Positions 6,907 through 64,000 of a stretch of 64,000 bases of DNA are shown piece by piece. The DNA is from an uncultured Actinomycetota bacterium (GTDB lineage Bacteria > Actinomycetota > Actinomycetes > Mycobacteriales > Micromonosporaceae). A program made the position numbers and the translations under genes. Location: assembly GCA_963736695.1 (NCBI GenBank), contig CAVTPU010000004.1, positions 2,139,961 to 2,203,960 on the forward strand. Reading direction: 5' to 3'. The notes beneath the pieces are model-generated. The model did not search any database, was not told the DNA's origin, and was given only the letters and a program-made list of their open reading frames with translations. How positions within the stretch are numbered: the first letter of the stretch is position 1; each line of letters begins with the position of its first letter.

Positions 6907-6969
6907 ACGCAGACATTAGTCTTGCGGCCACGGGGCGCCCCATCGGCGCCGCCACGAGAGAGGCTCGGT

Positions 6970-7818: not shown

Positions 7819-7825
7819 GGCGGGC

Positions 7826-8521
7826 TCAGGTCGACAGATCGACCTCTTCCCACCCGCACGGCTCCGGCTGATATGGCCCGCGCAGCACCACCGCCCACTC
7901 CAACGCCCACCGTCGCTGGCCGATCGCGTTGGAGTCGATGACTCCCGGCAGTCGAATCTGGCGGCGTTCTGCCTCAAGATAGGCCCAATCCAGGCAATAG
8001 AACAGATCAAGGACGATGGCCGCCTCGGGCGCCGGACGCACGGTCGGCTCCGTTCGTGTGCGCCACGCCGCGAAGGGCTCCTTCGACGGCAGATGCGGCA
8101 ACTGCTCGATGAGCCCGTCCGGTGCGGGCGCCGTGGGGTCGAGGTGGGAGACGAGACCCAGCACCCACGCGAACGCGTAGAGCGCCTCCAGGTGCAGCGC
8201 GAACGACCGTTGATCGCCCTCACCCGAAGCGACGAAGCTCCACTCGGGCCGGGTCAGAAACTCCAGCAGGTGTGCGTCGAGAAGCCACGCCATCGCGGCC
8301 TCCGACGGCATCCCGAAACAGCGGGCGAGCACGACGTTGAGAACGGCCGTGCGGGCCTCCAACTCCACAAGGGGGCGCAGCGTGACCCGATCTCCCGGCT
8401 CCCAGACGAGCGGGAAGTCCGGGGGCGGCACCGGCAGCTCCAACCGGCGCAGTTGCTCCACACTGGCGGCACGGACCCGATGCGGGTCGGGCGCGGGCAC
8501 GGTCACAGCACAGTCCACCAA
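7826..8521 (-). CDS. DUF4272-like hypothetical protein
   Basis: 231-aa ORF with a non-repetitive, balanced composition. The family assignment is from memory of the sequence pattern only. Confidence 0.5.
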   Translation of the reverse strand: MVDCAVTVPAPDPHRVRAASVEQLRRLELPVPPPDFPLVWEPGDRVTLRPLVELEARTAVLNVVLARCFGMPSEAAMAWLLDAHLLEFLTRPEWSFVASGEGDQRSFALHLEALYAFAWVLGLVSHLDPTAPAPDGLIEQLPHLPSKEPFAAWRTRTEPTVRPAPEAAIVLDLFYCLDWAYLEAERRQIRLPGVIDSNAIGQRRWALEWAVVLRGPYQPEPCGWEEVDLST

Positions 8522-8724
8522 TTCATCGATGTGTCGACGTCCGCCTGCCTCAAACGCGGGGAACTCTAGCGTGCGCCGTCCAACGCGAAGCGGCGGCCGT
8601 CGTGCTCACGCCTCGTCAGGTTGACCGTCGGGAACCCGATTTCTCCTGATTTATCACAGGATACCCATCCGCACCGGCGATTCGAGAGCGCTCATCGGCG
8701 ATTCGCCCCTCGGAAGCGGCCACG

Positions 8725-10011: not shown

Positions 10012-10462
10012 GCCGGGTCCTCACTTCCACGCTTCGATCGGTTGTGCCCAACCGACGTTCTAGGTCTCCGACGTCAAACGCGTGCGGAAGAAGGTCGGCG
10101 ACCCGCACCGGCCCATCGAGACTGTCCACAAGGCAGTCGGGCCCGCCTTGCTCCCATAACAGTTGCCGGCATCGGCCGCACGGCATCACCGGAGAGCCCG
10201 AACCGTCCACACAGGAGACAGCACGCAGGCGACCGCCGCCGGTTGCGTGCAACGACGAGACCACCCCGCATTCGGCGCAGAGCACGACGCCGTAGGCCGC
10301 GTTCTCGACGTTGCACCCCACCACGACCCGACCATCATCGACGAGGCCCGCCGCGCCGACCGGATAGGACGAGTACGGCGCGTACGCGCGCCGCATCACC
10401 TCGGTCGCCGCCGCGCGCAGATCGATCCAGGGCACGGGAAAGGCGGATGTCGTCACGATCAC
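10004..10462 (-). CDS. cdd: Cytidine deaminase
   Basis: 152-aa ORF with Zn motifs ...CAECGVV... and ...PCGRCRQ.... The stop overlaps the deoA start by 8 nt. Confidence 0.9.
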   Translation of the reverse strand: MIVTTSAFPVPWIDLRAAATEVMRRAYAPYSSYPVGAAGLVDDGRVVVGCNVENAAYGVVLCAECGVVSSLHATGGGRLRAVSCVDGSGSPVMPCGRCRQLLWEQGGPDCLVDSLDGPVRVADLLPHAFDVGDLERRLGTTDRSVEVRTRHG

Positions 10463-11739
10463 GCCTTCACATAGGGTTTTCCGTCGGCGGCCGGCGCACG
10501 CACCTTGCCGACCAGACCTGCCACCGCGAGGATCGTCGCGAGATAGGGCAGCATGGCGAGAAAGTCACTGGGAATGGGGCTCGCGATGCTGGCGAGATAG
10601 CTCGCGAGTTTGTCCGCGAAACCGAAGAATAGCGCCGCGAACAGCGCGCCGGTCGGATTCCACCGGCCAAAGATCAAGGCGGCGAGTGCGATGAAGCCCT
10701 TGCCACCGATCATGTTCTTGGAGAACTGCCCGACTAGGCTGAGCGTGAAGAAAGCGCCGCCCAGACCGGCCACCACTCCGGCGAGCAACACGTTGAGATA
10801 TCGCATGCCCAAGACGTTGACACCGACCGTGTCGGCCGCCGCCGGGTGCTCTCCGACAGACCGGGTCCGCAGGCCCCAGCGGGTTCGGAACAGCCCGATG
10901 TTGATGATGACGACCAGTGCGAGGGCGAGGAAAAGAAAGAGGCTGCCGGTGAAGACCGACGGCCCGAACACCGGAATCTCCGACAGCAGCGGCAGCTCCC
11001 ACACGGCGAACTTGGGTGGCTGGTTGTAGTCCGCCGAATGGGGACGCATCAACTGCTCGTAGATGAACCCGGTGAGGCCGACCGCGAGCAGGTTGAGAAC
11101 GACGCCGAGCACCACCTGATCGACCAGGTATCTGATCGAGAACCAGGCCAGGAGCGCGGAGATCAGGACGCCGCCGATGATCCCGCCGATGAGTCCCGCC
11201 CAGATGCTCGTGCCGATGGTGCCGAGCAACGCCGCTCCGAAAGCCCCGGTGAGCAACTGTCCCTCGATCGCCACGTTGACCACGCCTGATCGTTCGCAGA
11301 GCACGCCGGCGAGGGCGCCGAAGATCAGGGGCAGGGAGAAGAGAAATGTGCCGCGCATGATGTCGGCTAGGGGCATGAACGTGATGCCGGGTGGGGCTGC
11401 CGAGATCTGCCAGCACAGGAACGACAGGAGGAGCCCGACCAGGCCGGCGCCGAGCAGCCAGGCGAACCAGCGCCGCGCCGGGGCGACGAGCATCGCCACC
11501 CCACAGCCGATCCCGACCGCGCCGAAGCCGATCGCGCCGCCCACGCTGTCGATGTCGATGGACGCTCCGGCGGGATCGTCGGTGAGGGTGAATTGGACTT
11601 CGACCCCGGTGGCGAGGGCCCCGAAGCCGGCGGAGGCCGCGAGGCCGCATGCGACGAGCCCCGCGCCAACCCTGCGTTCCTTGCTCCAGAACCGGGCCGG
11701 CTCACGCACGGCAACGTCCGAAAGGACCAGAGTGCTCAT
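10459..11739 (-). CDS. ABC transporter permease (nucleoside/simple-sugar type)
   Basis: 426-aa polytopic ORF that overlaps the cdd start by 4 nt. It is in an operon with a second permease, a double-NBD ATPase and a BMP lipoprotein. Confidence 0.85.
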   Translation of the reverse strand: MSTLVLSDVAVREPARFWSKERRVGAGLVACGLAASAGFGALATGVEVQFTLTDDPAGASIDIDSVGGAIGFGAVGIGCGVAMLVAPARRWFAWLLGAGLVGLLLSFLCWQISAAPPGITFMPLADIMRGTFLFSLPLIFGALAGVLCERSGVVNVAIEGQLLTGAFGAALLGTIGTSIWAGLIGGIIGGVLISALLAWFSIRYLVDQVVLGVVLNLLAVGLTGFIYEQLMRPHSADYNQPPKFAVWELPLLSEIPVFGPSVFTGSLFLFLALALVVIINIGLFRTRWGLRTRSVGEHPAAADTVGVNVLGMRYLNVLLAGVVAGLGGAFFTLSLVGQFSKNMIGGKGFIALAALIFGRWNPTGALFAALFFGFADKLASYLASIASPIPSDFLAMLPYLATILAVAGLVGKVRAPAADGKPYVKA

Positions 11740-11743
11740 GCCC

Positions 11744-13087
11744 CTACCATCCCTTCGCCATGGAGGTTCCCACGGCGGAATCGGACCTGTCCGCCCGCAA
11801 TTGGAACAACGCCTTGACCAACGCTGGCGCCGCGACGAACAACACGATGAGCGCCTGAATCACGGTCACCAACTCCAGCGAAATCCCCTCATAGGACTGC
11901 ATCCGGTTGCCGCCGGCACGCAGAGCGCCGAATAGCAATGCGGCGAGCACCACGCCCCACGGGCGGGCCCGACCCAGCAACGCGACCAGAATGCCGTCGA
12001 ATCCGATGGTGCCGGCGGCGGCACCGGTCATCGCGTCAGCCTGGGATCCAAGGACGATGCTCGTGCCCCCGAGTCCGGCAAGCGCACCGGTGACCGCCAT
12101 CACCGCGACAACCGTGCGCGGCACACTCATGCCGGCGGTGCGTGCGGCGTCGGGGTTGGCGCCCACCGCGCGCAACTCGAACCCGAAGGCCGAACGCCGC
12201 ATCATCCAGGCGATCGCCGCCGTCACCAGGAGCGCGACGATCACGCCAGCGTCGACGCGCAGCGTCTCACCGAGAAGCCGGGGCAGCTTAGCCGTGTCGA
12301 GCACGTCCTTGCTGATCGCGTCGGAGCGGGTGGGGTGGTGCACCAACGACTGCATGATCACCCAGTTGAGGAAGAGAATCGCGACGTAGTTGAGCATGAT
12401 CGTCGTGATGACCTCGTGGGCTCCGGTGCGGGCCTTGAGGATCCCCGGAATGAATCCCCAGATCAGGCCGCCCAGCGCGCCCGCAACGAGGGCGACCAGC
12501 AGATGCACGACGACTGGCAGGTCGACCAGAAATCCGGCGAGCGCGGCGAAGACCAAGCCCATGATCGCCTGACCCTGCACGCCGATGTTGATCAGACCAC
12601 CACGGAACGCCACGGCGAAACAGAGCCCCGTGAAGATCAATGGGGTGGCATAGCTGAGGGTCTCGGTAAACGGGAAGAAGACCAGGTGCCAGTCGTTGGT
12701 CCCGTCGGCCCAGCCACGCACCGCCTCCCAGTCGAGCACGCTGCCCTTGAAGAGGTTCACGTAGGCGTCGCTGACGCGCGTCCAGCTCTGGGACACCGCG
12801 TCCGCCGGTCGGGCGAAGAGGTAGGAATAGCTGTCCAGCAGGTCCGGGGTGGAGAGCACGATGAGCACTCCACCGACGACCATCGCGAGCACGATCGCCA
12901 GGACCGTCACGGTCACGTCGTTGGCGGTGACGACCTGCTGAAGCACTCGGGGCCAACGGCTCGGCGGTGGCTCCGGACGACCGTCGGCGCCCGCACCCGA
13001 CGCCGACGCGTTCGACTCGCGCGCCGCCTCGTCCGAGCTCATCGGTGCCTTGTCGGGGGAACCCGCGAAGGGCTCTGGCTCACTCAT
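11744..13087 (-). CDS. ABC transporter permease
   Basis: 447-aa polytopic ORF directly downstream of the ATPase gene, with a 4-nt overlap. Confidence 0.85.
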
Positions 13088-30870: not shown

Positions 30871-32198
30871 ACGACACCGTGACGACGGGGCGCGGCCCCG
30901 CCCTGCTACTCGACATCGACGTCGCCGAGCCGATCCCGGCCATCACCGCCCGCGACGTCGCCGGAGCGGGCCAAGCACACGTGCTCGTCCGCCGAGACAC
31001 CCAGCCCCTCGGGCTCGTCGTGATCGACCTTCCCGAGGCGGGGCTGTCCGCCGCGGCCTTGTCCGCCGCGATAAACCCGACGACGCGTACGGGCACCGAG
31101 CCCGCGAGCCTCGACGAGCCATCCGGCTATCTCGCCCGACGAGGCGAAGTGCTGCGAGACGCACCGCCGATCACGGTCGTGATCTGCACCCGGGATCGGG
31201 CGGAGTCACTGCGGGCCAGCGTCGACAGCGTGCTCGCGCAGGCGTACCCACGGTTTCGGATTTTGATCGTCGACAACGCGCCCAGCGACGCCTCGACCCG
31301 GGCCTTCGCCCAGGACGCGGCGGAGCGGTCCGGTCTCGTCGACTATTTGGTCGAACCACGGCCCGGTCTGTCGCGCGCGCGCAACGCGGCGATCGACGCC
31401 GTCGGGGACCCGATCCTCGCCTTCCTCGACGACGACGCGGTCGCCGACCCGCACTGGCTTGCCGAGATCGCCCGGGCCTTCGCCGACGTGCCCGAAGCCG
31501 ACGCGGTGAGCGGCCCGATCCTGCCCGCCGCGATCGCGACACCCGCGCAGGTCTGGTTCGAGCAATACGGCGGCCACACCAAGGGTCGCGGATTCACCCG
31601 CGCCGTCATCGGTCCGGCCACCGCACGCGAGCAGAACCCGCTCTATCCACTGCCCCCGGTCGGCGCTGGCGGCAACATGGCGTTTCGCCGGCGGGTCTTC
31701 GACCGCATCGGCGGCTTCGACCCGGCGCTCGGCGCCGGCACGGTGGCGATGGGTTCCGAGGACACCCACATCTTCATGCGACTGCTGCGCGCCGACGGGA
31801 CCGTCGTCTATCAGCCGGGCGCCCTCGTGCGACACCACAACCGGCCGGACCTCGCCGGGCTGCGGCGACAGATGCTCGGATATGGCACCGGGCTCACCGC
31901 CGCCTACACCAGCATGGTGCTGCACGACCCCACGGTGCTGATCGGATTGCTGCGGCTGGCACCCACCGCGCTGCGTGACCTCATGTCGCGCTCCGGCCAA
32001 CGCACCGGAGGCCTTCCCGCCGACTTCCCACCGGACCTGCTCGCCACCGGCCGGCGTGGCCTGCTGCGCGGACCACTCATCTATCTGCGCTCCCGACACC
32101 GGCTGTGGCGCGACGATGCGCAAGACAGTGCGCACAACGATGCGCAGACCCGATCAGGGAGGCTGCGACGGACCCGCTCGGCGGTGGTCGCCCGATGA
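30867..32198 (+). CDS. GT2 glycosyltransferase with a roughly 110-aa N-terminal extension
   Basis: ATGA overlap at 30867-30870 with GGAGG upstream. ...ITVVICTRDRAESL...ILIVDNAPSD...AFLDDDAVA... Confidence 0.8.
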   Translation: MNDTVTTGRGPALLLDIDVAEPIPAITARDVAGAGQAHVLVRRDTQPLGLVVIDLPEAGLSAAALSAAINPTTRTGTEPASLDEPSGYLARRGEVLRDAPPITVVICTRDRAESLRASVDSVLAQAYPRFRILIVDNAPSDASTRAFAQDAAERSGLVDYLVEPRPGLSRARNAAIDAVGDPILAFLDDDAVADPHWLAEIARAFADVPEADAVSGPILPAAIATPAQVWFEQYGGHTKGRGFTRAVIGPATAREQNPLYPLPPVGAGGNMAFRRRVFDRIGGFDPALGAGTVAMGSEDTHIFMRLLRADGTVVYQPGALVRHHNRPDLAGLRRQMLGYGTGLTAAYTSMVLHDPTVLIGLLRLAPTALRDLMSRSGQRTGGLPADFPPDLLATGRRGLLRGPLIYLRSRHRLWRDDAQDSAHNDAQTRSGRLRRTRSAVVAR

Positions 32199-33478
32199 CT
32201 GTCACCCGCAACGCCACCGCATTGATGATCTCGACGGTGACGAGCGCGGCGCTGGGCTTCGGCTTCTGGGTCGCGGCCGCGCACTGGTTCGCGCCCGCCG
32301 TGGTCGGGCAAGCGGCCGCGTTCATCGCCGCCATGACTCTGCTCGCCGGCGTGTCACAACTCAATCTGGTCAGCCTCTATGCCAGGTTCCTGCCCACCGC
32401 CGGTGCCCGCACCGGCCGGCTCGTCGGCACCGGCATGGCGGCCTCGGTGGTGACCTCCGTGGTGCTCGCGACCGCCTTCCTCGCCGCGGGCGCGGGGCGC
32501 GCGTTCGTCTCCCCCGGCCTCGCCACCGTCGTCTTCGTCGTCGCGGTCATCGCCACCGGCTTGTCGTTCATCGTCGACGGGGTGCTCACCCCGCTCGGCC
32601 GGGCCCGCTGGGTGCCGGCGAAGAACATCGCCATCGCCGCCGCGAAACTCGCCCTGCTGGCAGTCCTCGCTGTCGCGTCGATCGAAGCCGCGCCGGCACT
32701 CACCGTCGCGTGGACGGTTCCGGTCGCGATCGCCGTCATCGTGCTCGGCACACACCTGGCTCGCCGGGTCGTCGCCCGTCACTCCGCCGCCACCGCGACG
32801 TTCGCCGACTCTGTCCCGCCGCGCCGGGGAGAGATCGCGTCGTTCGTCTCCGCCGAATATCTCAACGGTCTCATCGCCAACGCCGTCGCCTTCGTGCCCC
32901 CGGTCTTGGTGAGCCATCTCCTCGGGACGGCGTCGAGCGCCTATTTCTATGTGCCATGGCTGGTCGGGGTCAGCGCCACGACCCTGCTGTGGAACATCGT
33001 GACGTCCTATGTGGTCTCAGCGGCCGGCGATCCGGCAGGCGGCACAGCCGCTCATGGCGCCGGGACGCACCTGCGCCGTGCGACCCAACTCGGGTTGCTC
33101 GTCGTCGTGCCGGCAACGCTCATCCTCACCACGGCCGCCACCCCGCTGCTCACCGTGGTCGGCGCCGGCTATGCCGAGCACGGCGCGCTCGCGCTGCGGC
33201 TGATCGGCGCATCACTGCCGTTCACCGCCCTGCTGCTCGCCTATTCGGCGTTCTGCGTCATGGACAAACGCATGTGGACGGTGGTGCTCGTCGGTGGGGT
33301 CAGCACGGCGGCGTTCCTCGCCGCGTCGTGGCTGGGCCTGCCGCGGTTCGGCCTCGTCGCCCCGGCCCTGGCTTATCTGGTCACCCAGGCCGCCGCCGGG
33401 CTGGCCGTCGCGCCGGCGGTGCTCCGCCGCTATCGGGCCGTGCGGGGACTCCCGCAGCCGGTGTGGCGGTTCGCGTGA
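32195..33478 (+). CDS. Wzx-like (MOP superfamily) polysaccharide/lipid-linked sugar flippase
   Basis: ATGA overlap at 32195-32198. The 427-aa protein has about 12 hydrophobic segments. Confidence 0.65.
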   Translation: MTVTRNATALMISTVTSAALGFGFWVAAAHWFAPAVVGQAAAFIAAMTLLAGVSQLNLVSLYARFLPTAGARTGRLVGTGMAASVVTSVVLATAFLAAGAGRAFVSPGLATVVFVVAVIATGLSFIVDGVLTPLGRARWVPAKNIAIAAAKLALLAVLAVASIEAAPALTVAWTVPVAIAVIVLGTHLARRVVARHSAATATFADSVPPRRGEIASFVSAEYLNGLIANAVAFVPPVLVSHLLGTASSAYFYVPWLVGVSATTLLWNIVTSYVVSAAGDPAGGTAAHGAGTHLRRATQLGLLVVVPATLILTTAATPLLTVVGAGYAEHGALALRLIGASLPFTALLLAYSAFCVMDKRMWTVVLVGGVSTAAFLAASWLGLPRFGLVAPALAYLVTQAAAGLAVAPAVLRRYRAVRGLPQPVWRFA

Positions 33479-35757
33479 GCCAGAAACCTGACGCTTCCCG
33501 CACAATGTTCGCGGGCGCGGCGATGCTGCTTGCCGCCCTCGCCGCAGCCGCGGTGCTCGCTCCCGCGTCGGCGGGGCCGTCCGCACTGCGCCTCATCGCG
33601 CTGGTCGCCTTCGCCACGCTCGCTCCTGGTGCCGCCGCCATGGCCTGGACCCGTCGGGTGCGGCCCAGCGTCGCCTGGGCCACCGCGGTCGTGCTGAGTC
33701 TGTCGGTGGTCACGCTGGAGTCTGCCGTGACGGTCTGGGCCGGCTGGTGGCATCCGCGTCAAGCGGTGCTCCTGGTGGCCTTGGTGACGGCCGTGACCGC
33801 TGGCGCCGCGCTGCGCGGGGCTGGTCTGCCGACACGTGACTGGATCGCGCGGTTCTCCCGACGACGGGTCGGCGCCCGGCTCGGCTGGCGTCTGCTGGCG
33901 CTGGCCACACCCGCCGCCGTGTGGTGGTGGAGTCTTGCCCACACCGACCTTTCCTCGCTCGGCCAGTTCGGCCTGCTCGCCAGCGTGCATCCGACGTTCT
34001 TCGTCGCGGCGGCGCTCACCGTCGTCGGCCTCGTCGTCGAGGCCACCCGGGGGTCGGGTCTGCGGGTCATCGCGGGCGGCTACGCCGTACTGCTGATTTT
34101 GATCATGCACGCCACGACGCCGATCCTGCTCGACCTGCCGCAATACGCCTGGACCTACAAACACATCGGAGTGGTGGAGTTCCTCGCCACCCACGGACAC
34201 GTCGGCGACGCCGCCGACATCTATCAGCAGTGGCCGGCGTTCTTCGCCACGGTCGCCCAGCTCACCAGCGCGGTGGGCGCCGATCCCGTCGCCGCCGCCG
34301 AATGGGCTCCCGTCTTCTTCAACCTCGCCACATCGGTCGTGCTCTTCGCCATCGCCCGCACCGTCGCCACCGACCGACGGGTCGCGCTGGTCACCGTCGG
34401 AGTGTTCCAGTGCGTGAACTGGATCGAGCAGGACTATCTCGCCCCCCAGGGGCTGGCGTTCGTGCTCAGCCTCGGAGTGCTGCTCATCGTGCTGCGTTGG
34501 CTGGTCGCCGCGCCGCCGATCGGCACCGGCGGACGGTTGGGCGCCTGGCTTCGCACCGGCATGCCCGACCGCGCCACGCCCGACCGTGCCACGTCGTCGC
34601 GCGCCGGCCGCGCGGCCGCCTTGGCCGCCGCGACGCTGGTGATGGCGGCGTTGAGCGCCACCCACCAGTTGTCACCGTTCCTCGTCGCCGGATCGGTGTT
34701 CGCCCTCACCCTGCTCGGACTGGTCCGTCCATGGTGGACATCGCTGGTGCTCTTCGCCGTTCCGGTCGCCTATCTCGTCCCCCGGTTCGACTTCATCAAC
34801 AGCACCTTCGGCGTCTTCGACGGATTCGACCTGCTGCATAACGCATCCGGCAACGCCGAGACGTGGGGGTCGACCGGACAGGCGTTCTCCGCGCTCGTCG
34901 TGCGAACTCTCGCCGTCGGCGTCTGGCTCACCGTCATCGCGCTCGCGGTGCGGTCCCGCCGCGCGTTGGGCCCGATCCTCGCGCCGCTGACCCTCACCGC
35001 GATCCCGTTCGGACTCATGGTCGCGCAGAGTTATGGCGGCGAGGCGATCTATCGCGTCTATCTCTTCTCGGCGCCGTGGGCCGCTCTCATCATCTCCATT
35101 CATCTGGTACGGGTGCTGAGCCCGGCCCTGTCACCACGGCCCGCGACACCTGGGCTCACCGGCCGAATCGCGTGGCTCGTGCGCCGATCGCGCCTCGCGC
35201 CGATTCTCGCGCTCGCCGCCACCGGCGGCATGCTGCTGGCGGCCCTGCTCGCCGCGATGCAGGGTCGGCATGGCCAGCTGATGGTCGACCGGCAGAGCCG
35301 CGACGAACTCGCCGCCGCCCGCCACCTCTATGCCAGCGCCGCGCCGGGATCCACTGTGGTCTTCGCCGCGCCCGGCTTCCCTACCCGGCTCACCGCCAAC
35401 TACGCCGACGTCAACACGCACATCGCCTACGGAGACCCGGACCTCGTCACCACCGCGCAGCTGACCAGAGTGACGCTCAACGACTCCTATCTGCCGTTGA
35501 TCGAGCAGTTCGTGCGCTCGCAGGGTGCGGGCGACGCCGGGACAACCACGGGCACAGCGGTGACAGCATCTGCGGCGACGACCACGGGCGGCGCACCGTC
35601 CTATCTGGTCATCAGTGACGCAATGGACCGTTACAGCGAATATTTCGGCGCACTGCCGGAGGGGTCGCTCGACACGCTGGACGCGTCGTTGGCCGCGTCG
35701 CCGCACTGGTCGCTGCACTATCGCAACGCCAGCACCGCGATCTATCAACTCCGTTAG
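33475..35757 (+). CDS. Large polytopic membrane protein (760 aa) with a C-terminal soluble domain, possibly a GT-C-type glycosyltransferase or polymerase
   Basis: GTGA overlap at 33475-33478. It is the real C-terminal part of track ORF 31975..35757. Many TM segments are followed by a Thr/Ala-rich linker and a roughly 60-aa tail. The family is not recognised. Confidence 0.6.
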   Translation: MSQKPDASRTMFAGAAMLLAALAAAAVLAPASAGPSALRLIALVAFATLAPGAAAMAWTRRVRPSVAWATAVVLSLSVVTLESAVTVWAGWWHPRQAVLLVALVTAVTAGAALRGAGLPTRDWIARFSRRRVGARLGWRLLALATPAAVWWWSLAHTDLSSLGQFGLLASVHPTFFVAAALTVVGLVVEATRGSGLRVIAGGYAVLLILIMHATTPILLDLPQYAWTYKHIGVVEFLATHGHVGDAADIYQQWPAFFATVAQLTSAVGADPVAAAEWAPVFFNLATSVVLFAIARTVATDRRVALVTVGVFQCVNWIEQDYLAPQGLAFVLSLGVLLIVLRWLVAAPPIGTGGRLGAWLRTGMPDRATPDRATSSRAGRAAALAAATLVMAALSATHQLSPFLVAGSVFALTLLGLVRPWWTSLVLFAVPVAYLVPRFDFINSTFGVFDGFDLLHNASGNAETWGSTGQAFSALVVRTLAVGVWLTVIALAVRSRRALGPILAPLTLTAIPFGLMVAQSYGGEAIYRVYLFSAPWAALIISIHLVRVLSPALSPRPATPGLTGRIAWLVRRSRLAPILALAATGGMLLAALLAAMQGRHGQLMVDRQSRDELAAARHLYASAAPGSTVVFAAPGFPTRLTANYADVNTHIAYGDPDLVTTAQLTRVTLNDSYLPLIEQFVRSQGAGDAGTTTGTAVTASAATTTGGAPSYLVISDAMDRYSEYFGALPEGSLDTLDASLAASPHWSLHYRNASTAIYQLR

Positions 35758-55403: not shown

Positions 55404-56825
55404 ATGCCCCAGGAAACGACATATCTCGAGTTGTCAGACGAAGGCGGCGGCGCCCACAAGTTCTATGAAGTCACCGTCGATGGCCCCTCGATGACTGTCC
55501 GCTATGGACGCATTGGGGGACCTGGGCAGTCCAAGACCACCACGTTCCCCGACGAGACAAAAGCGAGGGCGACGGCGGCGAAGAAGATCGGCGAAAAGGT
55601 GCGGGGCGGCTACGCGCCCGCCGTCGCCGGTGTTCGGCAACGGCGTTCGGTGGCGCGTCGAGTGATCGTCAGCTCCGCCTCGACCGCCAAACGCGCGCCG
55701 GTGCTGTGGCGTTATGACTCCGGCGCCGCCGCGTTCGGCGTCTTCGTCGACGACCGGGTCTGCATGGTCGGCAATGAGTCGGGTCTCATCACCACGCTCA
55801 CCCATGGTGCCGAGGTCGTCGGCCAGGTCCGCCTGCCCGATGGAGTGAAATGCATTGTCGCCGACGATCAGTGGCTCTATGCCGGTTGCGACGACGGAAA
55901 CGTCTATGACCTGTCCGGAAAAATCCCGCGCATGGCATATCAGATCTCACCGGACATCGACATCTATTGGCTCGACATTCACGATGGCCTGCTCGGTGTC
56001 GCGGACTCGGGCGGCGGCATCGCCGCGATCGACCACGAGGACGAATTCTTGTGGCGCCGCAAAGGACGTGGCACGTCTGGCTGGATGGTTCGGTGCGACT
56101 CCACCGCGATGTATCACGGCCACTCCGCCGGCGTCACCAGCTATGACTGGCGCACCGGGCAGGAGCTATGGCATCAGGGGACCAAAGCCGTGCTTTTCGG
56201 TTGGCAGGAGAGCACCACCGTCTTCGCGGGCACGTCCACACACGAGGTGGTCCGATTCGGCAAAGACGGCACCAGACAACATACGTACGCGTGCGACGCG
56301 GCGGTCTTTTCGTGTGCGACATCGCCGGATGGACAATATGTCTTCGCCGGCGACTGCAACTCCTCAATCTATTGCTTCGACGAGGCGGGCACACGCCTAT
56401 GGAAGCTCGGCACCGGCTGCGGTTCTGCCTATTCCATGCAATATCACGCGGACCGGCTCTATGTCGTGACCACGAGCGGCGCATTGGCCTGCATCGACGC
56501 CAGCGAGTCAGCGATTCGAGCGGCGGAGTCCGGAAGCGTCCCCACCGTCGTCGATGTCAAGGCTCCGAGCCACATGACAGCCGTCGCCCCGTCAACCACT
56601 GTCGAGGTGGTCAGCGACAGCGCCGACGGCGTCGTCGTGGAATGCTATGAGCACGGCGGTCAACTGCGAGTGCGAGTGGTCTCCCCCGGATATCACTCCG
56701 ACTGGCGAGTCCAGTTCCCCAAGGGAATCCGCGAGCCGAACGCCCGATATGTCGTCGGCGGCGTGCGTGAGTCCGGCCGGGGCGGTTTCTATCGGGCGTA
56801 CGGCGACGTCCGGCGGCTCGTCTAG
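55404..56825 (+). CDS. WGR-domain protein fused to a PQQ/WD40-like beta-propeller and a small C-terminal domain
   Basis: GGAGAGG lies 8 nt upstream. The N-terminus YLELSDEGGGAHKFYEVTVDGPSMTVRYGRIGGPGQSKT...KKIGEKVRGGY is WGR-like. It is followed by repeats such as LYAGCDDGNVYDL and VFAGDCNSSIYCFD. Confidence 0.75.
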   Translation: MPQETTYLELSDEGGGAHKFYEVTVDGPSMTVRYGRIGGPGQSKTTTFPDETKARATAAKKIGEKVRGGYAPAVAGVRQRRSVARRVIVSSASTAKRAPVLWRYDSGAAAFGVFVDDRVCMVGNESGLITTLTHGAEVVGQVRLPDGVKCIVADDQWLYAGCDDGNVYDLSGKIPRMAYQISPDIDIYWLDIHDGLLGVADSGGGIAAIDHEDEFLWRRKGRGTSGWMVRCDSTAMYHGHSAGVTSYDWRTGQELWHQGTKAVLFGWQESTTVFAGTSTHEVVRFGKDGTRQHTYACDAAVFSCATSPDGQYVFAGDCNSSIYCFDEAGTRLWKLGTGCGSAYSMQYHADRLYVVTTSGALACIDASESAIRAAESGSVPTVVDVKAPSHMTAVAPSTTVEVVSDSADGVVVECYEHGGQLRVRVVSPGYHSDWRVQFPKGIREPNARYVVGGVRESGRGGFYRAYGDVRRLV

Positions 56826-58108: not shown

Positions 58109-58306
58109 GTTCGCATTGTGCCCGAAGAACGCGACAGACGACACCGGCTGACTCCCGGCAGAGGTCACCCGTACCAAGGGCTCATTTGTCACCTGCAAGG
58201 TGGGCCATGCGACAAAGAAACTCCACGCGGGCCAACGGGGCTGGTTGGGTGAGTAATGGTGACGGCCCACTGGCGTCACGGTCCACGAAAAGAGGCGCGT
58301 ACGCAG

Positions 58307-59368
58307 ATGGTCAAGCTGGCCAAGACACTCGCCGCGGCCGTGGCTGGGCTGCTCCTGACAGGGTGCGTGGTCGCGGTTGGAGCGTCTCCAGCCCTCGGGC
58401 GGCCGCCGAGGCCGGCCGCGTCCGCGCCGGTGTTCGCCTACTACTACATGTGGATGTGGGGATCGTATTGGTCGAGAAACAAGACCGACTATCCGACACA
58501 ACCCTTTCCCGGCAACTATCGCAGCGATGACCTCGCCGTCATCGAGTGGCAAATGGTTCAGGCGAAGGCGGCAGGCATCACCGGCTTTCTCGTCGCGTGG
58601 AAAGACACCCAGACGTATCGGCGCATTCTGCCGCTGGTCGAAGAGGCTGCTCTTCGGCAGAATTTCTGGCTCGCCATGCACTACGAGTCGCTTGATGCCA
58701 GCAACACGCCGTTACCTGTGTCCACAGTGGCTGCCGACTTCACATACTTCGTGGCGACCTATGCCCCTCATGCGGTCTGGTATCGAGTTAATGGCAAACC
58801 GCTGACGGTATTCCACGACACTCGATGGTTCACCGGCTCGGAGATCTCCTCCATCACCCGGCCCGTGCGATCTCGGATCAAGGTCCTGAGCTCGGCCCAC
58901 AGCGTGGCCGAATACTATCGGGTCGCGCCATACACTGACGGCGACGCCTACTATTGGCCCGCCGTCAACCCGTCCACCAATCCTGGTTTCGCCAACCGGC
59001 TGCGCGATATCGGCGCGGCGGTCCACAAGGTCAACGTCAAGATCTGGATAGCGCCAATCGCGCCGGGTTTTGACGCCACCCTCATCGGCGGTCATATCGT
59101 CGCCCCCCGCAATAATGGCGACACGCTGCGTCTTCGGCACGCCGCAGCCGCCGCCTCTGGCGCCGACCTGATCGGATTGATCAGCTGGAACGAGTTCACG
59201 GAGAACACACACCTGGAGCCGTCGATCAACTATGGCGACGCCTATGTGCGGCTCATGGCGTCGCTGGCGACGGCTGCTGTCCACCGCCGATCGGCACGCC
59301 CCACAGCGCCAACTGCGCGACCAGGTCTCCAGAGATGCGGATCTCGTTCGAACTGCCCGCATCGATGA
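58307..59368 (+). CDS. GH99-like (endo-alpha-mannosidase-like) lipoprotein
   Basis: The start MVKLAKTLAAAVAGLLLTGC has a lipobox, with AAGAGG upstream. ...FAYYYMWMWGSYW...GNYRSDDLAVIEWQMVQAKAAGITGFLVAW.... The last roughly 33 codons have poor codon bias and overlap the convergent gene. Confidence 0.6.
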   Translation: MVKLAKTLAAAVAGLLLTGCVVAVGASPALGRPPRPAASAPVFAYYYMWMWGSYWSRNKTDYPTQPFPGNYRSDDLAVIEWQMVQAKAAGITGFLVAWKDTQTYRRILPLVEEAALRQNFWLAMHYESLDASNTPLPVSTVAADFTYFVATYAPHAVWYRVNGKPLTVFHDTRWFTGSEISSITRPVRSRIKVLSSAHSVAEYYRVAPYTDGDAYYWPAVNPSTNPGFANRLRDIGAAVHKVNVKIWIAPIAPGFDATLIGGHIVAPRNNGDTLRLRHAAAAASGADLIGLISWNEFTENTHLEPSINYGDAYVRLMASLATAAVHRRSARPTAPTARPGLQRCGSRSNCPHR

Positions 59369-60170
59369 GGAGACAGAACCGGTCCGGCCAGACCGCCGCG
59401 AGAAAGGGAAAGGCCACCTCGAGAAAAGGCGTCGTCGCGGAACATCCCTGCCGCATTGTCGCCGACGAGGTGAAGATCGAGACCGCCTCCTCGTCTCGCC
59501 CGACAGCCATGAGCCAAGGAAACTCGGGATCGAGCAGGTCGGCCGGTTCGACCTCACGACTCGCCGGGACCAACACAACGGAGTCGACCAGCCGATCCAG
59601 CAGCGTCACCGCATCGAGTCCTGGTGTCGCCTCCAGTCGCGCAGACATCTTCCCCTCAGCTGGATCCTCGGCCAGCACCCGACCGGGGTCAGCATCCGGC
59701 CCTCCTCGCAGACCGGAGTCGACCGGCGGCGACGCGTCGGGCATATCCGCCGCGCCGAGCGCCGCGTCAACGGCCATCGGCAGGGTGAGTGCGCCGGAGG
59801 CAACCTCGGCCACGGCCTCGATGGTGAGATAGGCGTCAATCGGCGTGCCAGGATTCAGTGCGAGCTGCCACGTCGACACCGGCCACTTCTCCCGCAGTTC
59901 GGCATAGTCGGTTGTCACATAGCTATCAACGACGTCGGTCAGTGCCGAGGCCATCGCGGCCTGCGAGGTGAACGCGAGCAGAAACGTCTGGCCGAACAAC
60001 TCCGCCGTGACGAACTGCTGCCCGTCTGCTGGAGACGCACTGGTCCGGGGATGAGGAAGATAGAGGGGTGCCGCGACCACCTCGTGAAAATATTCCGACT
60101 GCCGGCCCGCATGAAGTGCGCTCAGCATCGCCATCTCCACCGCATTGGCTGGTGCCCACATGTCGCTCAT
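59253..60170 (-). CDS. SseB-family protein
   Basis: MSDMWAPANAVEMAMLSALHAGRQSEYFHEVVAAPLYLP...TFLLAFTS... is the SseB N-terminal pattern. The track ORF N-terminal extension is not credible. Confidence 0.6.
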   Translation of the reverse strand: MSDMWAPANAVEMAMLSALHAGRQSEYFHEVVAAPLYLPHPRTSASPADGQQFVTAELFGQTFLLAFTSQAAMASALTDVVDSYVTTDYAELREKWPVSTWQLALNPGTPIDAYLTIEAVAEVASGALTLPMAVDAALGAADMPDASPPVDSGLRGGPDADPGRVLAEDPAEGKMSARLEATPGLDAVTLLDRLVDSVVLVPASREVEPADLLDPEFPWLMAVGRDEEAVSIFTSSATMRQGCSATTPFLEVAFPFLAAVWPDRFCLLIDAGSSNEIRISGDLVAQLALWGVPIGGGQQPSPATP

Positions 60171-60276
60171 GTTGTGTGCCGGATCATGCGATCCCCTATA
60201 AATCGATGCTGTCCACGGTCTGCTCGTTCCCGCCACACGATGAAGCGGCAGATGTGCGCGTGCTCGGTGCTGCTGT

Positions 60277-60684
60277 TCAGGCGGCGCGGCGAAGACCAGC
60301 CAGTGACGAAGGTTCGATGGGTTCCCAGGTGCCATAGTTGCGGGCATCGCACTCGAGGTCGGTGGAGTCCGCGGCCACATATGTCTGCGCGGCGTGCGTG
60401 ATCGCTTCGGCGAGCTCGCGTGCCGTGGCGGCGGTGAGAGGCCAGGGGGCCGTCCTGCGCCACGTGCGTCGCCCTGGCTGCGGGGGCTGCCATCCGCCGC
60501 TGAGCAGGGCGCCCCGCTCCGACTGCTCAAGCGGGCGAGTAACCATGAGTTCGGCGCTGAGGCTATCGGATTCCTGGATCACCTGCACATAGTCGCCATC
60601 GACGCGCAGATTGATGAAGTCGTCGAACGTGAGAAAGGCGAGATCGACCGCGAGATCGCGAGCGATGTCGGGGTAGCTAGCCAT
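60277..60684 (-). CDS. YbjN / TY-Chap-like small protein (putative chaperone or immunity-type protein)
   Basis: The ATG at 60684 shares one nucleotide with the upstream gene's TGA. ...DYVQVIQESDSLSAELMV...LLSGGWQPP...TWRR...ARELAEAITHA... resembles YbjN-like domains (assigned from memory). Confidence 0.45.
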   Translation of the reverse strand: MASYPDIARDLAVDLAFLTFDDFINLRVDGDYVQVIQESDSLSAELMVTRPLEQSERGALLSGGWQPPQPGRRTWRRTAPWPLTAATARELAEAITHAAQTYVAADSTDLECDARNYGTWEPIEPSSLAGLRRAA

Positions 60685-61163
60685 CAATATCTGCCGACGG
60701 AGTCGTTGAAGTCCTGGTATTCGTTGCGATTGACGACCACCAGCACGCCACTGCCGACGTTCTGGACGGTGATGGTGGCTCGGTCACGACGCCATTGAAT
60801 GCGCGGAACCGCCCCGGGGATGGCTGCGGTGGCCGAGCCGAAAACCTCGGTGCCGATACCGGCGATGGTCGCGAAGGCGTCGATGACAGCGAGCCGGTCG
60901 TCGACGTCGTCCGTCGCGCGGCTGGTCACGCGTACGGTGATCGATTGGACCGTGTCGCCGTGATAGAGCAGCGCCGCGTCGGTGTCCGGCACGCCCCATG
61001 GGGTGGCGGCGATGGACCCCTTTCCGGCGATCTCCTCGATGATGGTGAGTCCCAAGGCGCTCATCAGCGCCGGGACGCCGCCGACAGTCCAGCTGAAGTC
61101 GCCGTCACGGAAGACGGTGAACAGGCGTTGCGTGTCGACGTCATCGATCGCGTGCAGGGTCAT
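60684..61163 (-). CDS. Hypothetical 159-aa protein, positionally the cognate immunity candidate for the toxin C-terminal module
   Basis: Its ATG overlaps the toxin TGA (ACATGACC, 61160-61163), and GGAGG lies in the last toxin codons. No domain is recognised. Confidence 0.55.
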   Translation of the reverse strand: MTLHAIDDVDTQRLFTVFRDGDFSWTVGGVPALMSALGLTIIEEIAGKGSIAATPWGVPDTDAALLYHGDTVQSITVRVTSRATDDVDDRLAVIDAFATIAGIGTEVFGSATAAIPGAVPRIQWRRDRATITVQNVGSGVLVVVNRNEYQDFNDSVGRY

Positions 61164-64000
61164 GTCCCTCCTTCCTCGGGAGTGATCAATTGTATGCTCT
61201 CGGGGTGTAGCCGTCCGGGGTCAAGACGATATTCGGTGAGCGTGACGACTCCCCGTGCCGAGGTGTGAACGAGAAAGCACCTGACCTGGCCGTTGGCGAC
61301 GGCCTGTTGCATGGCGATCCCCAATGCAGGGTCCTCGCGCAGCGCCTGAGCTAGTTTGGGGTCAATCATCAACAGCTCCCGAACATACTCGGGGCTGCAC
61401 TGCTCGGCCTTGATAATGCTCGTTGGGTTGGCGGGGTCGGGCACATTGCGTGTCTCCCGCACAGCTCCGACACCTTTTTCTTCAACGACCAACAACACGG
61501 GAGTGCCGCTGTCGTCGAAGGCGATGCGGTCGAGATTTCCAGACGTCCCGGGGGCGTAGTCACCGCCGCTGACCAACCGATTGTTGGGGAATTCCTTGCC
61601 AATGGCATGGTCGCCGCCAGCGACGCCGAGGCGTTCGCTTGCGCGCACGAGGTCGACGGAGGCCGCAGTGTAGGCGGCGGCGGCATCGCCAGCTCGAATC
61701 CTGTCAAGCTCTGTCAAACCACCGGCCGTGGCGTGGTCCAGAGTTTGCGAAAAGGCTTTGCTGCCGAAGGTGTTGCGGTCGACGGTTACTCCCGCGTTGC
61801 GGAGCGCGTCGGCGACCGGCTCGACCTCGTCACGCCACACGGCCTCCTTTGCCGCAGCCGCGACTTCGCGATCGACGACGGCCTGCCGAAGCGCGACCGC
61901 CGTGGGCTCCGAGCCGTCGCTTGGGATGATTCGAGATTCTCCGGCGCGTTCGGCGACTGCTTGAACGCCCACGGGTGGAGGCTTATTGTCGTCGAGGACG
62001 AAGCCGGTGTCGCCGCGGAGGCGCCCGGTGGCGTCGCGCCACGTGTCGACGCGATCGCCGACGAAATGCATGTCTCCGTTGGCGTCGCGGAATAGCTCGC
62101 CGATGATGATCGTGCCGCGAGTTCCGGTGGGAGTGAGGTCCTCGGCGGCCCACCGTTGGGGTGTGGCCTCCGCTACGCCGCGTACGTCCCCCGATTGGGC
62201 CAGCTCTGTCGTTCCCGAACGAAGCTGAGGATCTTCCCCAGCACCCGATGGTAGTGTCCGTCCGCCTGACTGCCCTTCGGCGTCCCGCTCATTGACGCCT
62301 TGTCGATCACCAGGTACCTGTTCGGTTGGTCGATCAGGTGGAACTGATATTCGACCTCCTGACTGTCTTCCCGGATCTTCTGAAAATCTATCAGGATTGC
62401 CATCGGTCGCCTCGAACTTCTCCATTGGTCTCGGCTGCGTGCCGTCGTGTGTGGCAGCCAATGATTCCCAGTTGTAGTCCCGGTTGGCAGCCTGGTGCGC
62501 CTCCCGGTAGGTAGCCCCCGGATGGTCACGAAGATAGCGTAGTTCGGTCAGCTCATGCTCGAGCAGGACAATGTCGCTGGCACGAACCTCTCCGTCACGC
62601 ATCCGAGCCCACGCCTCGGCGATATCCGGGTCCGGGTCGAATCTGCGGTGGACGATGCCGCCTTCATAGTCGTCGAGCGCGTGTTCCTGGATCAGGAGGT
62701 GGTGTTTGACGTTGTTGAGTTCCTCGGCCGTGAACCCGGTCCGGCCATCGGCCCGCGCCACGTCAGCCAGATTGCGTGCCATCGCGTCGACGTCGTGGGC
62801 ATCCGCGCGGAAGCGGTCATAGGCCTCCGCGGCCCACACATCGGCGGCCGCGTCATCTCGTGGCCTTGTGGCCGCGCCCGACTGAGCAGCCGACGGATCG
62901 GAGTCGCCCTCAGCGACCGTGTGTTCCGGCCGGTTACCGGGTGTCCCGGTCGCATCGGACCGCTCCGCGTGATCAATGTGGACGGACTCCGGCGTCCGTG
63001 ATGTCGCCGTCTCGGCGTGCGCCCCTGCCCCAGCCGCCGGTTCCACCACCGGTTTGACCGCAGTGAGGCCCTCATACCTGGTCCTGTCGGTAGGTTGGTC
63101 GGCCCGAACCGGCTCCCGTACTGTCTCCCGAACGGGACCGACGGCGCTGTCCACGCCAGGACGGTCCGCGGGTCGCACCTGCCCGGTGCGGTCGACCCAG
63201 CCTTGACTCACTCGTTGGCCTGTTGTGTCAACCCGTTCCCATGCGATGCCACGACCGGGCGCGGCCGAGACCCGAACTCCGGTGGAACGGTCATGGGCAT
63301 CGAGACCAAGGCCCCGTTCGCTCCGCAGCGGTGTGACATCGTGGCCGATCTTCAACTGCCCAGGAACCTGGCACACCGACATCACATGACCCTGCACGCC
63401 GAAGACCGCTCCGGCAGCGGCGCCGTGCGCCGCGTTGTTAGCGATATTCCAGACATCAAACCGACCGGTACGCCGAAAGCCGTCAAGTTCGGTGCCGAGT
63501 CCGACAAGTCCACCGGCAACGCCTCCGCCGATGACGTGTCCGGCCAGCCCGCCAAACATTCCGGCGCCGAAGATTCCGCCCTGGATGGTCTGCCCCGCCA
63601 CTTGGCTGAAGTCCACACTGGACCTATGACCGGCCGCGACTTGCAGTGTCTGGCCGACCAAGTTTCCGCCGCCCATGAAACCGGCACCGAACAGTGCCCG
63701 CTTCCCCACATAGTTGCGAAGCTCTCGACTGAACGAGGTCTCGACAATCTGCCGGGCAGCACAGTCGCGAAGTGTTCGACGGGTGATCTCCTCGGCCATG
63801 GTGAACTCCGCGCGCCGAACCGCGGCGCCCGTCGCCGCCTCGGCCGCGGTGGTCACACCGAACCTGCGAAGGAGCTGGCCTTCGATCTCCGCGGCCAACT
63901 GCGTGCGCATCGCGTTCATGCTGCCGGCCAATACGGTGCTGGCCTCACGACCAGCGGCCTTCTCGAACGCGACGAGCGCCTCCTTGCCGGCCACCGACTG
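61160..64000 (-). CDS. Large polymorphic-toxin-like protein (5' end outside the window) with a Gly-zipper region, linker, helical module, linker and C-terminal PD-(D/E)xK-like module
   Basis: The ORF is open from the window edge to 61160. It contains GAGFMGGGNLVGQ...GGIFGAGMFGGLAGHVIGGGVAGGLVGLG. The C-terminal ...GNLDRIAFDDSGTPVLLVVEEKG... is nuclease-like. Codon bias is lower than in the core genes. Confidence 0.7.
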   Translation of the reverse strand, partial: QSVAGKEALVAFEKAAGREASTVLAGSMNAMRTQLAAEIEGQLLRRFGVTTAAEAATGAAVRRAEFTMAEEITRRTLRDCAARQIVETSFSRELRNYVGKRALFGAGFMGGGNLVGQTLQVAAGHRSSVDFSQVAGQTIQGGIFGAGMFGGLAGHVIGGGVAGGLVGLGTELDGFRRTGRFDVWNIANNAAHGAAAGAVFGVQGHVMSVCQVPGQLKIGHDVTPLRSERGLGLDAHDRSTGVRVSAAPGRGIAWERVDTTGQRVSQGWVDRTGQVRPADRPGVDSAVGPVRETVREPVRADQPTDRTRYEGLTAVKPVVEPAAGAGAHAETATSRTPESVHIDHAERSDATGTPGNRPEHTVAEGDSDPSAAQSGAATRPRDDAAADVWAAEAYDRFRADAHDVDAMARNLADVARADGRTGFTAEELNNVKHHLLIQEHALDDYEGGIVHRRFDPDPDIAEAWARMRDGEVRASDIVLLEHELTELRYLRDHPGATYREAHQAANRDYNWESLAATHDGTQPRPMEKFEATDGNPDRFSEDPGRQSGGRISVPPDRPTEQVPGDRQGVNERDAEGQSGGRTLPSGAGEDPQLRSGTTELAQSGDVRGVAEATPQRWAAEDLTPTGTRGTIIIGELFRDANGDMHFVGDRVDTWRDATGRLRGDTGFVLDDNKPPPVGVQAVAERAGESRIIPSDGSEPTAVALRQAVVDREVAAAAKEAVWRDEVEPVADALRNAGVTVDRNTFGSKAFSQTLDHATAGGLTELDRIRAGDAAAAYTAASVDLVRASERLGVAGGDHAIGKEFPNNRLVSGGDYAPGTSGNLDRIAFDDSGTPVLLVVEEKGVGAVRETRNVPDPANPTSIIKAEQCSPEYVRELLMIDPKLAQALREDPALGIAMQQAVANGQVRCFLVHTSARGVVTLTEYRLDPGRLHPESIQLITPEEGGT
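62173..62403 (-). CDS. Nested 76-aa ORF in an alternative frame of the toxin gene (candidate immunity/antitoxin-like protein)
   Basis: The ATG at 62403 has GAGG 6 nt upstream, and the TAG stop is at 62173. GC3 is 59/76 in this frame against 28/76 in the toxin frame (hand count). Peptide: MAILIDFQKIREDSQEVEYQFHLIDQPNRYLVIDKASMSGTPKGSQADGHYHRVLGKILSFVRERQSWPNRGTYAA. Confidence 0.55.
   Translation of the reverse strand: MAILIDFQKIREDSQEVEYQFHLIDQPNRYLVIDKASMSGTPKGSQADGHYHRVLGKILSFVRERQSWPNRGTYAA

Follow-up and report, generated by a model that had tools for sequence, protein, structure and literature searches.

Antibacterial toxins of the Actinomycetota type VII secretion system (T7SS), which have only recently been shown experimentally, are the closest described relatives of the locus reported here (PMC13444075). 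The EatA/TapA1/TapA2/EatI locus of Mycobacterium abscessus is an ESX-4-dependent antibacterial toxin locus in which EatA is a GH183 arabinanase, and many uncharacterised EatA-like loci are found across Actinomycetota (PMC13444075). Here we describe an island at the right edge of a 64,000-nucleotide stretch of DNA from an uncultured bacterium of the Micromonosporaceae (hereafter the window), in which a large toxin open reading frame (ORF) on the minus strand carries two predicted toxin modules, termed domain 1 and module 2, and in which a small ORF, the predicted immunity gene for domain 1, lies out of frame inside the toxin gene between them. Probably, the product is an ESX-type polymorphic toxin of the T7SS whose two effector modules have separate sets of protection genes; a WXG100 head, a payload shared across architectures and co-varying downstream genes are all present.

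Like the EatA locus, this island combines an N-terminus with a helical targeting domain, a C-terminal toxin and a predicted immunity gene downstream, and the two small genes upstream of the toxin may correspond to the one or two accessory genes found there; unlike it, the island carries other payloads, two toxin modules, one immunity-like gene that is nested, and a two-gene set of DUF6301 and TY-Chap3. The T7SSb LXG/WXG toxins of Bacillota and the WXG-type toxins surveyed earlier (PMC3482391) share with it a WXG/LXG trafficking head, a variable C-terminus, adjacent immunity genes and orphan immunity copies, but in those descriptions the immunity genes are separate and downstream, whereas here one is nested. 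A probable further point in common is the restriction-endonuclease fold, which that survey lists, with signatures of D, ExK, Q and Y, for actinobacterial WXG toxins (PMC3482391). The island differs in that module 2, DUF6301 and the nested protein match no Pfam Tox-REase or Imm family. TY-Chap3 and SseB families are also found in the ADP-ribosylglycohydrolase (ARG)-centred systems described by the Aravind laboratory, which in addition have a rapidly evolving restriction-endonuclease-fold effector (PMC9503650). Unlike these, the island has no ARG, phosphatase, Nudix or WYL gene, and its TY-Chap3 is tied to a T7SS toxin module and to DUF6301.

The large ORF is still open at the window edge ("cag tcg gtg" at 64000), and a homology search recovered the full toxin, on a contig of 3.3 Mb, as a protein of 1182 residues (P0001) that is 100% identical to the in-window part. 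Residues 36-160 of P0001 match WXG100_2 (PF25547, 61.5 bits where the cut-off is 27, E=1.2e-16), and its N-terminus also matches PF06013 (E=4e-4). On a second contig that encodes the same protein, two small genes of 133+ and 139 residues lie directly 5' of the toxin, the latter overlapping the toxin start, and relatives have a YbaB-like gene and a gene of 106-122 residues upstream of the toxin. WXG100_2 was the only domain recognised by Pfam and PADLOC on full-length P0001, and searches of the in-window part against Pfam, NCBIfam, PADLOC and PDB sequences assigned no family.

Domain 1 was delimited as a block of ~150 residues common, at ~55-60% identity, to P0001, to a Micromonosporaceae fragment (P0002) and to a 1579-residue protein with an HExxH region and a GT4-conflict domain (P0003). 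A search with this block gave 21 proteins, and it forms the last domain in WXG100_2 proteins of 410-433 residues from Streptomyces and Plantactinospora and also stands alone in proteins of 160-226 residues. Invariant positions (P0001 numbering) are H670, H676, D691, W700, R702, G706 and D712, followed by LLEHE at 715-719 (E717-H718-E719), E722, P730, Y734 and H738. The AlphaFold2 (AF2) model of domain 1 consists of helices and one beta-hairpin and has a predicted local distance difference test score (pLDDT) >93 for query residues 10-140; Foldseek searches of PDB and BFVD returned no match at E<=0.001, and there was no Pfam, NCBIfam or PADLOC match. When plasmids and phages were searched with tblastn, three proteins proved to have domain 1 at their very C-terminal end, with 29-40% identity: one of the hemagglutinin-repeat type in Rhizobium, one of the PT-TG type in Priestia, and one of a Streptococcus phage, where its gene lies beside a portal gene. 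A fragmented Ligilactobacillus gene annotated as a phage minor capsid protein was matched as well. Payloads of polymorphic toxins are typically recognised by just this pattern, in which one domain is carried on several delivery platforms (Zhang et al. 2012, PMC3482391). By sequence, domain 1 is a toxin-position domain that founds a new family; its conserved residues include His, Glu and Asp, a set that suggests a metal-dependent hydrolase. Assignment to Ntox28, with its [DN]HxxE motif, was considered and set aside: the motif spacing differs (HExxE), and the Pfam Ntox28 model gave no match.

Where domain 1 ends the protein, a gene of 74-77 residues comes next, its start overlapping or abutting the toxin gene (L013, L014 and L015). 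tblastn with these small proteins finds a match inside the toxin ORF of the window itself, in another frame (62403..62176, minus strand). The nested ORF encodes 76 residues (MAILIDFQKIREDSQEVEY...WPNRGTYAA), has GAGG 6 nt 5' of its ATG, and fills the gap between domain 1, which ends at about residue 765, and module 2, which starts at residue 846. Over this stretch the toxin-frame linker is rich in Gly, Pro, Arg and Asp and has pLDDT <50 in the AF2 model, and GC content at third codon positions (GC3) is 0.78 in the nested frame versus 0.37 in the toxin frame.

The arrangement recurs well beyond the window. A small ORF directly follows domain 1 in 12/12 genome loci; in eight of the 12 (the window, six Micromonosporaceae loci and one Nocardia locus) the toxin ORF reads through the small ORF and continues for kilobases, and in the other four the toxin stops and a free-standing small gene follows. 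A metagenome scan added 53 domain-1 loci, 48 of which have the small ORF (21 nested, 27 free-standing). Overall, then, a gene of ~75 residues follows domain 1 in 60/65 loci and is nested in 29/60. All 29 nested copies are intact and all lie in frame +1, with the toxin ORF running 73 to >3000 nt further, while the 27 free-standing metagenome copies occur in frames 0, 1 or 2. As far as the sequences can tell, the common +1 relation points to a single origin of the nested layout, followed by spread via recombination.

Several properties of the overlap follow the nested frame. GC3 is 0.78-0.93 in the nested frame versus 0.37-0.47 in the toxin frame at the nested genome loci, and 0.78-0.96 versus 0.33-0.65 at those from metagenomes; in a frame plot, the overlap is the sole segment of this kind in each domain-1 giant ORF, except for one more in L004. 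A hidden Markov model (HMM) built from the four free-standing genes retrieves exactly the eight nested ORFs among 3059 six-frame segments, each at full length and with E=7e-18 to 5e-11, the next best segment having E=1.5. The nested copies are 33-63% identical to one another, and their codon-position variability in the nested frame is 0.386, 0.341 and 0.436 at positions 1, 2 and 3; counted in the toxin frame, variability is therefore highest at the first codon position and lowest at the third. Mean amino-acid identity is 0.48 in the nested frame versus 0.38 in the toxin-frame linker. The nested start is kept in 28/28 loci checked (ATG in 24, GTG in 4), and the overlapping toxin codon is always of the form NAT or NGT, encoding His, Asp, Asn, Gly or Arg, so that only the base outside the start codon changes. 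Shine-Dalgarno-like runs precede the nested start in 27/28 loci. In a control on comparable 76-codon stretches, the toxin-side frame was open by chance in 68% and the +1 frame in 50%. The intactness of all nested copies therefore goes beyond chance, because the +1 frame is open in only half of such stretches, and read-through would be evolutionarily cheap, because the toxin side is open in most.

Intact in diverged relatives, provided with free-standing homologues and bearing the codon signature of its own frame, the nested ORF has, in sequence terms, the marks of an overlapping gene, and we predict that it encodes the immunity protein for domain 1. The 76-residue product has no Pfam or PADLOC match. 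A small gene also accompanies domain 1 outside Actinomycetota: a gene of 77-83 residues comes next in each of the Priestia, phage and Ligilactobacillus homologues. That of Priestia, with 83 residues, gives a full-length match to the immunity HMM (E=1.4e-4), and the match of the 77-residue Ligilactobacillus gene is marginal (E=0.15, or 0.018 with a 12-sequence model). In the two plasmids and the phage, we see a free-standing small gene next to a toxin that bears one payload only, whereas in our locus the gene is nested and there are two payloads. In Streptococcus phage Javan583 (L075:1592-3066), the post-portal gene has domain 1 at its end (34% identity), and the next gene, of 79 residues, overlaps it by 1 nt; the pair of domain 1 and small partner therefore also rides on Bacillota prophages.

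In full-text searches of open-access papers, we found no polymorphic toxin with an out-of-frame nested immunity gene. Partial parallels exist elsewhere. Viral overprinted genes, such as those for the paramyxovirus C proteins (PMC8778822), likewise yield two proteins from one DNA stretch, and the yeast killer toxin K2 combines toxin and protection in one gene (bioRxiv 10.1101/2023.10.24.563802). K2, however, uses the same frame, with its signal sequence being protective, whereas in our locus the +1 frame of a toxin gene on a bacterial chromosome encodes a second protein, complete and distinct from the first.

The additional segment of the frame plot in L004 corresponds to a second, unrelated nested ORF of ~105 residues (MSQDPEITEDQARELMSRLL...; L004:8085-8402), also in the +1 frame, within a toxin ORF of 3509 residues (2555-13081) and just 3' of its Gln_amidase domain (residues 1649-1792). 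Its GC3 is 0.89 in the nested frame versus 0.40 in the toxin frame, and it has no Pfam match. The toxin of L006 likewise contains a Gln_amidase domain, and downstream of it there is a free-standing homologue at 36% identity (L006:22380-22568, minus strand). This second case suggests that the nesting principle extends beyond one family.

Module 2, the C-terminal payload, was searched with residues 846-1182 as query against 1.8 billion representative proteins. The 52 matches, 25 of them at E<1e-30, always place it at the C-terminus, in proteins of 337-4143 residues, and among 28 aligned proteins the upstream domains include WXG100_2 (6), Gln_amidase (3), GT4-conflict (2) and PPE (1); on this distribution, module 2 behaves as a polymorphic-toxin domain. 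Seven residues are invariant in the 28 sequences (D215, E231, K233, G234, Q258, Y263 and D271 in module numbering), of which D215, E231 and K233 correspond to D1060, E1076 and K1078 of P0001 and form a D...ExK motif, the signature of nucleases with the restriction-endonuclease fold. In the AF2 model (pLDDT 93.4), a head rich in beta structure and a long helical hairpin are joined to an alpha/beta core, in which the motif lies on the neighbouring strands 216-220 and 226-233. The weak top Foldseek matches of this model include proteins with the restriction-endonuclease fold (the Cas4-family ACE1, SfsA, splicing endonucleases, SPARDA and a viral cap-snatching endonuclease). Motif, topology and these weak matches together lead us to predict that module 2 is a nuclease. 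It has no Pfam Tox-REase match, and no matches were found in plasmids or phages.

Two genes follow module 2 with great regularity. The window copies match DUF6301 over its full length (PF19818, 82.4 bits against 27.2, E=4e-23) and TY-Chap3 (PF22552, 43.2 bits against 27, E=7e-11), and DUF6301 followed by TY-Chap3 comes after module 2 in 6/6 readable contexts, with overlapping or near-abutting junctions. Apart from the window, the loci with the pair are two metagenome loci, L009, which is partial (DUF6301 is followed by a gene that is cut by the contig end and is 53% identical to the window TY-Chap3), and L010; the two genome assemblies L011 and L012, whose toxin combines WXG100_2, Gln_amidase and module 2; the genome locus L017, with the same architecture as L011; and the genome locus L018, whose toxin directly adjoins genes for EccC, EccD, an ESAT6-like protein and DUF6507. 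Where a locus has just the N-terminus and domain 1 in common with the window protein, no DUF6301, TY-Chap3, SseB or module 2 was found, and because loci without module 2 also lack the pair, the pair can be said to travel with module 2. In L018 (L018:1-9501), the module-2 toxin has 812 residues and no Pfam WXG100 match, and two tandem DUF6301/TY-Chap3 pairs follow it, one of them an orphan immunity-like pair. Immunity genes, judged from gene order, behave in this linked way, and the orphan copy of the pair in L018 agrees with it. We therefore predict DUF6301 to be the immunity protein for module 2, with TY-Chap3 as the second member of the pair and either a chaperone or a co-immunity protein. 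Searches of DUF6301 and of the SseB-like protein encoded next to the pair against PDB sequences gave nothing meaningful.

If this interpretation is followed to its mechanistic consequences, the toxin would be exported via the T7SS with the aid of the two small upstream gene products, and the glycine-zipper region may assist membrane passage. In the target cell, domain 1 would act as a metal-dependent hydrolase and module 2 would degrade nucleic acid. In the producer, ribosomes would start on the toxin mRNA at the ATG of the nested gene, guided by its Shine-Dalgarno-like site, and the resulting 76-residue protein would neutralise domain 1, and DUF6301, probably with TY-Chap3, would neutralise or chaperone module 2. 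The nested layout would then amount to a self-contained cassette of domain 1 and its immunity gene that could be placed in-frame in the middle of a toxin, ahead of other payloads; in relatives, the chain that contains domain 1 also includes Zeta_toxin, GT4-conflict and Gln_amidase. One might also speculate that the rare-codon linker slows elongation between domain 1 and module 2. In a broader sense, we lean somewhat towards the idea that out-of-frame nested immunity genes are a general design of the giant multi-payload T7SS toxins of Actinomycetota, built from a portable toxin domain, a disordered linker and a nested gene with an internal start, and that domain 1 represents a new enzymatic toxin fold.

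Certain observations weigh against this interpretation. Shine-Dalgarno-like G-runs are common in high-GC DNA, and those before the nested start are partly accounted for by a conserved Trp-Gly in the toxin frame. Openness of the toxin frame across the overlap is weak evidence by itself, because the toxin side is open by chance in 68% of comparable stretches. Foldseek gave no significant match of module 2 in PDB (best E=0.35), and because the matches there were only weak, module 2 is called a predicted nuclease and given no named Tox-REase family. No T7SS machinery genes were found within the window. The module-2 protein of L010 (L010:3116-15311) has no detected WXG100 domain and is encoded amid conjugation-type genes, downstream of a HerA/DUF87-like ATPase and near genes for a TraG/VirD4 coupling protein and DnaB; this conjugative-element-like context suggests that module 2 may also be delivered by other routes. 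Finally, the only published description of TY-Chap3 proposes a chaperone, in the unrelated ARG-centred systems (PMC9503650).

These observations have to be set against what other accounts of the locus would require. The nested ORF could be a silent passenger, the relic of a downstream immunity gene that was read through at the fusion of cassettes and from which no protein is made, its openness being kept only by a constrained toxin-frame linker or by the recency of the fusion. The single +1 relation of all nested copies would fit one fusion event, and alternative frames are easily open in high-GC DNA (50-68% of 76-codon stretches), but the copies have diverged to the extent given above and yet keep full length, start codon and stop position, and at a chance of 0.5 per locus the probability of 28/28 being open is ~4e-9. 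GC3 and codon-position variability track the nested frame and not the toxin frame, and where the toxin codon overlaps the start, variation is confined to the one base that is not part of the ATG, all of which makes a passenger unlikely. Alternatively, the 1182-residue ORF may not be translated as one chain, if a +1 shift near the end of domain 1 led to termination at the nested stop or if module 2 were translated separately; the product would then be a toxin-immunity fusion or a short toxin, and the linker would never exist as a real peptide. Such a scheme would account for the very atypical linker codons (GC3 0.37, with many AGA, ATA, CGA, GGA and TCA), and it is favoured by a +1 frame that in the window is open for 48 codons 5' of the nested ATG and by the occurrence of module 2 in proteins without a detected WXG100 domain. 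It is nonetheless very unlikely, given that the toxin frame is open through the overlap and beyond in 29 loci, often for kilobases, and in the scanned loci continues in the same frame into module 2, Zeta_toxin or GT4-conflict. A stop interrupts the +1 frame of L004 and L006 only 9 codons ahead of the ATG, a search for a conserved slippery site showed none, and without read-through module 2 would have no secretion domain.

A different kind of alternative concerns the function of the whole island, which might be an intracellular conflict (anti-phage) system or a conjugation-associated polyvalent protein, with TY-Chap3 and SseB as peptide-binding chaperones. Both of these families were defined in ARG-centred systems with restriction-endonuclease-fold effectors (PMC9503650), relatives carry GT4-conflict domains, and L010 has the neighbours just described; however, no ADP-ribosylglycohydrolase, Nudix or WYL gene is nearby, PADLOC gave no matches, the protein bears a WXG100 secretion domain and its relative in L018 lies beside EccC and EccD, and domain 1 also ends hemagglutinin-repeat, PT-TG and portal-adjacent phage proteins. 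We give this account the least credence of all. Closer to a T7SS toxin with dedicated protection genes is a variant of it in which DUF6301 alone is the immunity protein for module 2 and TY-Chap3 is an export chaperone that, in analogy to type III chaperones, keeps the nuclease module fit for secretion and has no protective role. TY-Chap3 is predicted to have a permuted type III secretion system chaperone/YbjN fold (PMC9503650), and DUF6301 is always directly 3' of the toxin, both in keeping with such a division of labour. In L018, on the other hand, the pair is duplicated as a unit without a second toxin, the pattern of orphan immunity and not of an export chaperone, and from the gene arrangements compared here we would put this variant at somewhat short of an even chance.

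The features of the island are collected in Table 1. The sequence-only reading of the window had described a large, Gly-zipper toxin-like gene running past the right edge, with its trafficking domain outside; the gene is indeed open to the edge, and upstream extension found the WXG100-like domain. The Gly-zipper stretch, as read from the translation, is GxxxG-rich (FGAGFMGGG...GGIFGAGMFGGLAGHVIGGGVAGGLVGLG) and is 45% identical to L001 over residues 240-470. The tight gene junctions that were claimed can be read directly in the DNA: the toxin ends "...gaa gga ggg aca tga", with GGAGG in its last codons and the DUF6301 ATG within "acATGAcc", GGAAGGAGGG forms a Shine-Dalgarno-like run just 5' of this junction, and the A at 60684 is common to the DUF6301 TGA and the TY-Chap3 ATG. 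HMM searches of each ORF placed the three downstream genes in families, and the YbjN/TY-Chap-like call for the 135-residue gene held in the form of TY-Chap3. The proposed polymorphic-toxin architecture stands as well, with its WXG100_2 head, toxin-position C-terminal module and constant partner gene pair.

Table 1. Features of the toxin island, in window coordinates
Feature	Position	Strand	Details
Large toxin ORF, in-window part	61160..64000	minus	residues 237-1182 + stop of P0001; start codon and WXG100_2 beyond 64000
Glycine-zipper hydrophobic region	63359..63682	minus	residues ~343-450; kept in relatives
Toxin domain 1	62414..62866	minus	residues ~615-765; alpha-rich with one beta-hairpin
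Disordered toxin linker	62174..62413	minus	residues 766-845; over nested gene; rare-codon-rich
Nested 76-residue ORF	62173..62403	minus, +1 vs toxin frame	ATG at 62403, TAG 62173-62175
Toxin module 2	61163..62173	minus	residues 846-1182; PD-(D/E)xK-like core ~61163-61591
DUF6301 gene, 159 residues	60684..61163	minus	PF19818; ATGA overlap on toxin stop
TY-Chap3 gene, 135 residues	60277..60684	minus	PF22552; 1-nt overlap on DUF6301 stop
SseB-family gene, 291 residues	59253..60128	minus	PF07179; 148 nt 3' of TY-Chap3

Other parts of that reading needed revision. What it took for modular linkers is a real region, but one that holds a second toxin domain and a dual-coding stretch, not mere linker; our analysis supports a polymorphic-toxin island with two toxin modules, a doubling that the earlier reading had missed. 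GC content and codon bias were said to be visibly lower than in adjacent genes, and the difference is real yet modest (island GC 0.652 versus 0.679 for the remaining window; toxin GC3 0.70-0.73 versus 0.77-0.86 in neighbouring core genes). The strongest local codon-bias anomaly is the linker at 62174-62413, with its low toxin-frame GC3, and arises because a gene is nested there. As for neighbouring ESX/T7SS genes, the window has none, but the toxin of the relative L018 has them at its side. An SseB-family gene does follow the pair (PF07179, 40.5 bits against 21, E=4e-10), but it is not a conserved part of the cassette: it is absent from L010, L011, L017 and L018, and tblastn found no matches in L001-L008. 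Its score against the NCBIfam "T7SS-associated protein" model NF033532 (26.8 bits) does not reach the cut-off of 85, by which it is only a distant relative of that family, and it may not be part of the toxin system. A promoter and terminator scan of the island yielded nothing informative.

The genes around the island are GH99-like, PNPOx/MDMPI and WGR-beta-propeller genes, and core genes of ARG systems are not among them. The GH99/GH71-like glycoside hydrolase gene (longest ORF 58256-59368, plus strand) converges on the SseB-like gene, their 3' ends overlapping by ~116 nt (59253-59368), and just outside the island a protein of 473 residues (55404-56825, plus strand) combines an N-terminal WGR domain with a WD40/PQQ-type beta-propeller. 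Two further ORFs on the plus strand of the window, of 1260 residues (31975-35757) and 580 residues (8890-10632), have no Pfam match at E<=1e-5 and may be high-GC shadow ORFs or uncharacterised genes. In the relatives L011 and L017 (5889-7049 and 3593-4852, respectively; minus strand), the WXG100_2/Gln_amidase/module-2 toxin has a divergent upstream neighbour that encodes a protein of 386-419 residues, in which a YwqJ-deaminase-like domain is combined with SUKH-3; the YbaB-like gene of L017 comes directly downstream of this neighbour and is likewise on the minus strand, and that of L011 is on the strand of the toxin.

A T7SS WXG-type polymorphic-toxin island is in itself of a known kind, and it is the nested layout that we did not find described. 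Module 2, domain 1 and the ~75-residue partner lie, to judge from their sequences, outside every curated family searched. Domain 1 would thus be a widespread unannotated toxin domain that together with its small partner spans Actinomycetota, Bacillota and phages, and that also ends a protein of Rhizobium (Pseudomonadota), where the partner gene was not identified. DUF6301 and TY-Chap3, previously without an assigned partner, gain a role as the companion pair of a nuclease-like toxin module. The region between the two payloads appears to be a conserved dual-coding stretch, with a complete immunity-like gene in the +1 frame of a toxin gene, and because gene callers miss nested genes, multi-payload toxins may seem to be without immunity genes and immunity repertoires may be under-counted. 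If the nested gene is read correctly here, such a layout would offer a route to the assembly of multi-payload toxins without loss of self-protection, and the gene itself would be a tractable model of bacterial overprinting with a clear phenotype, self-intoxication.

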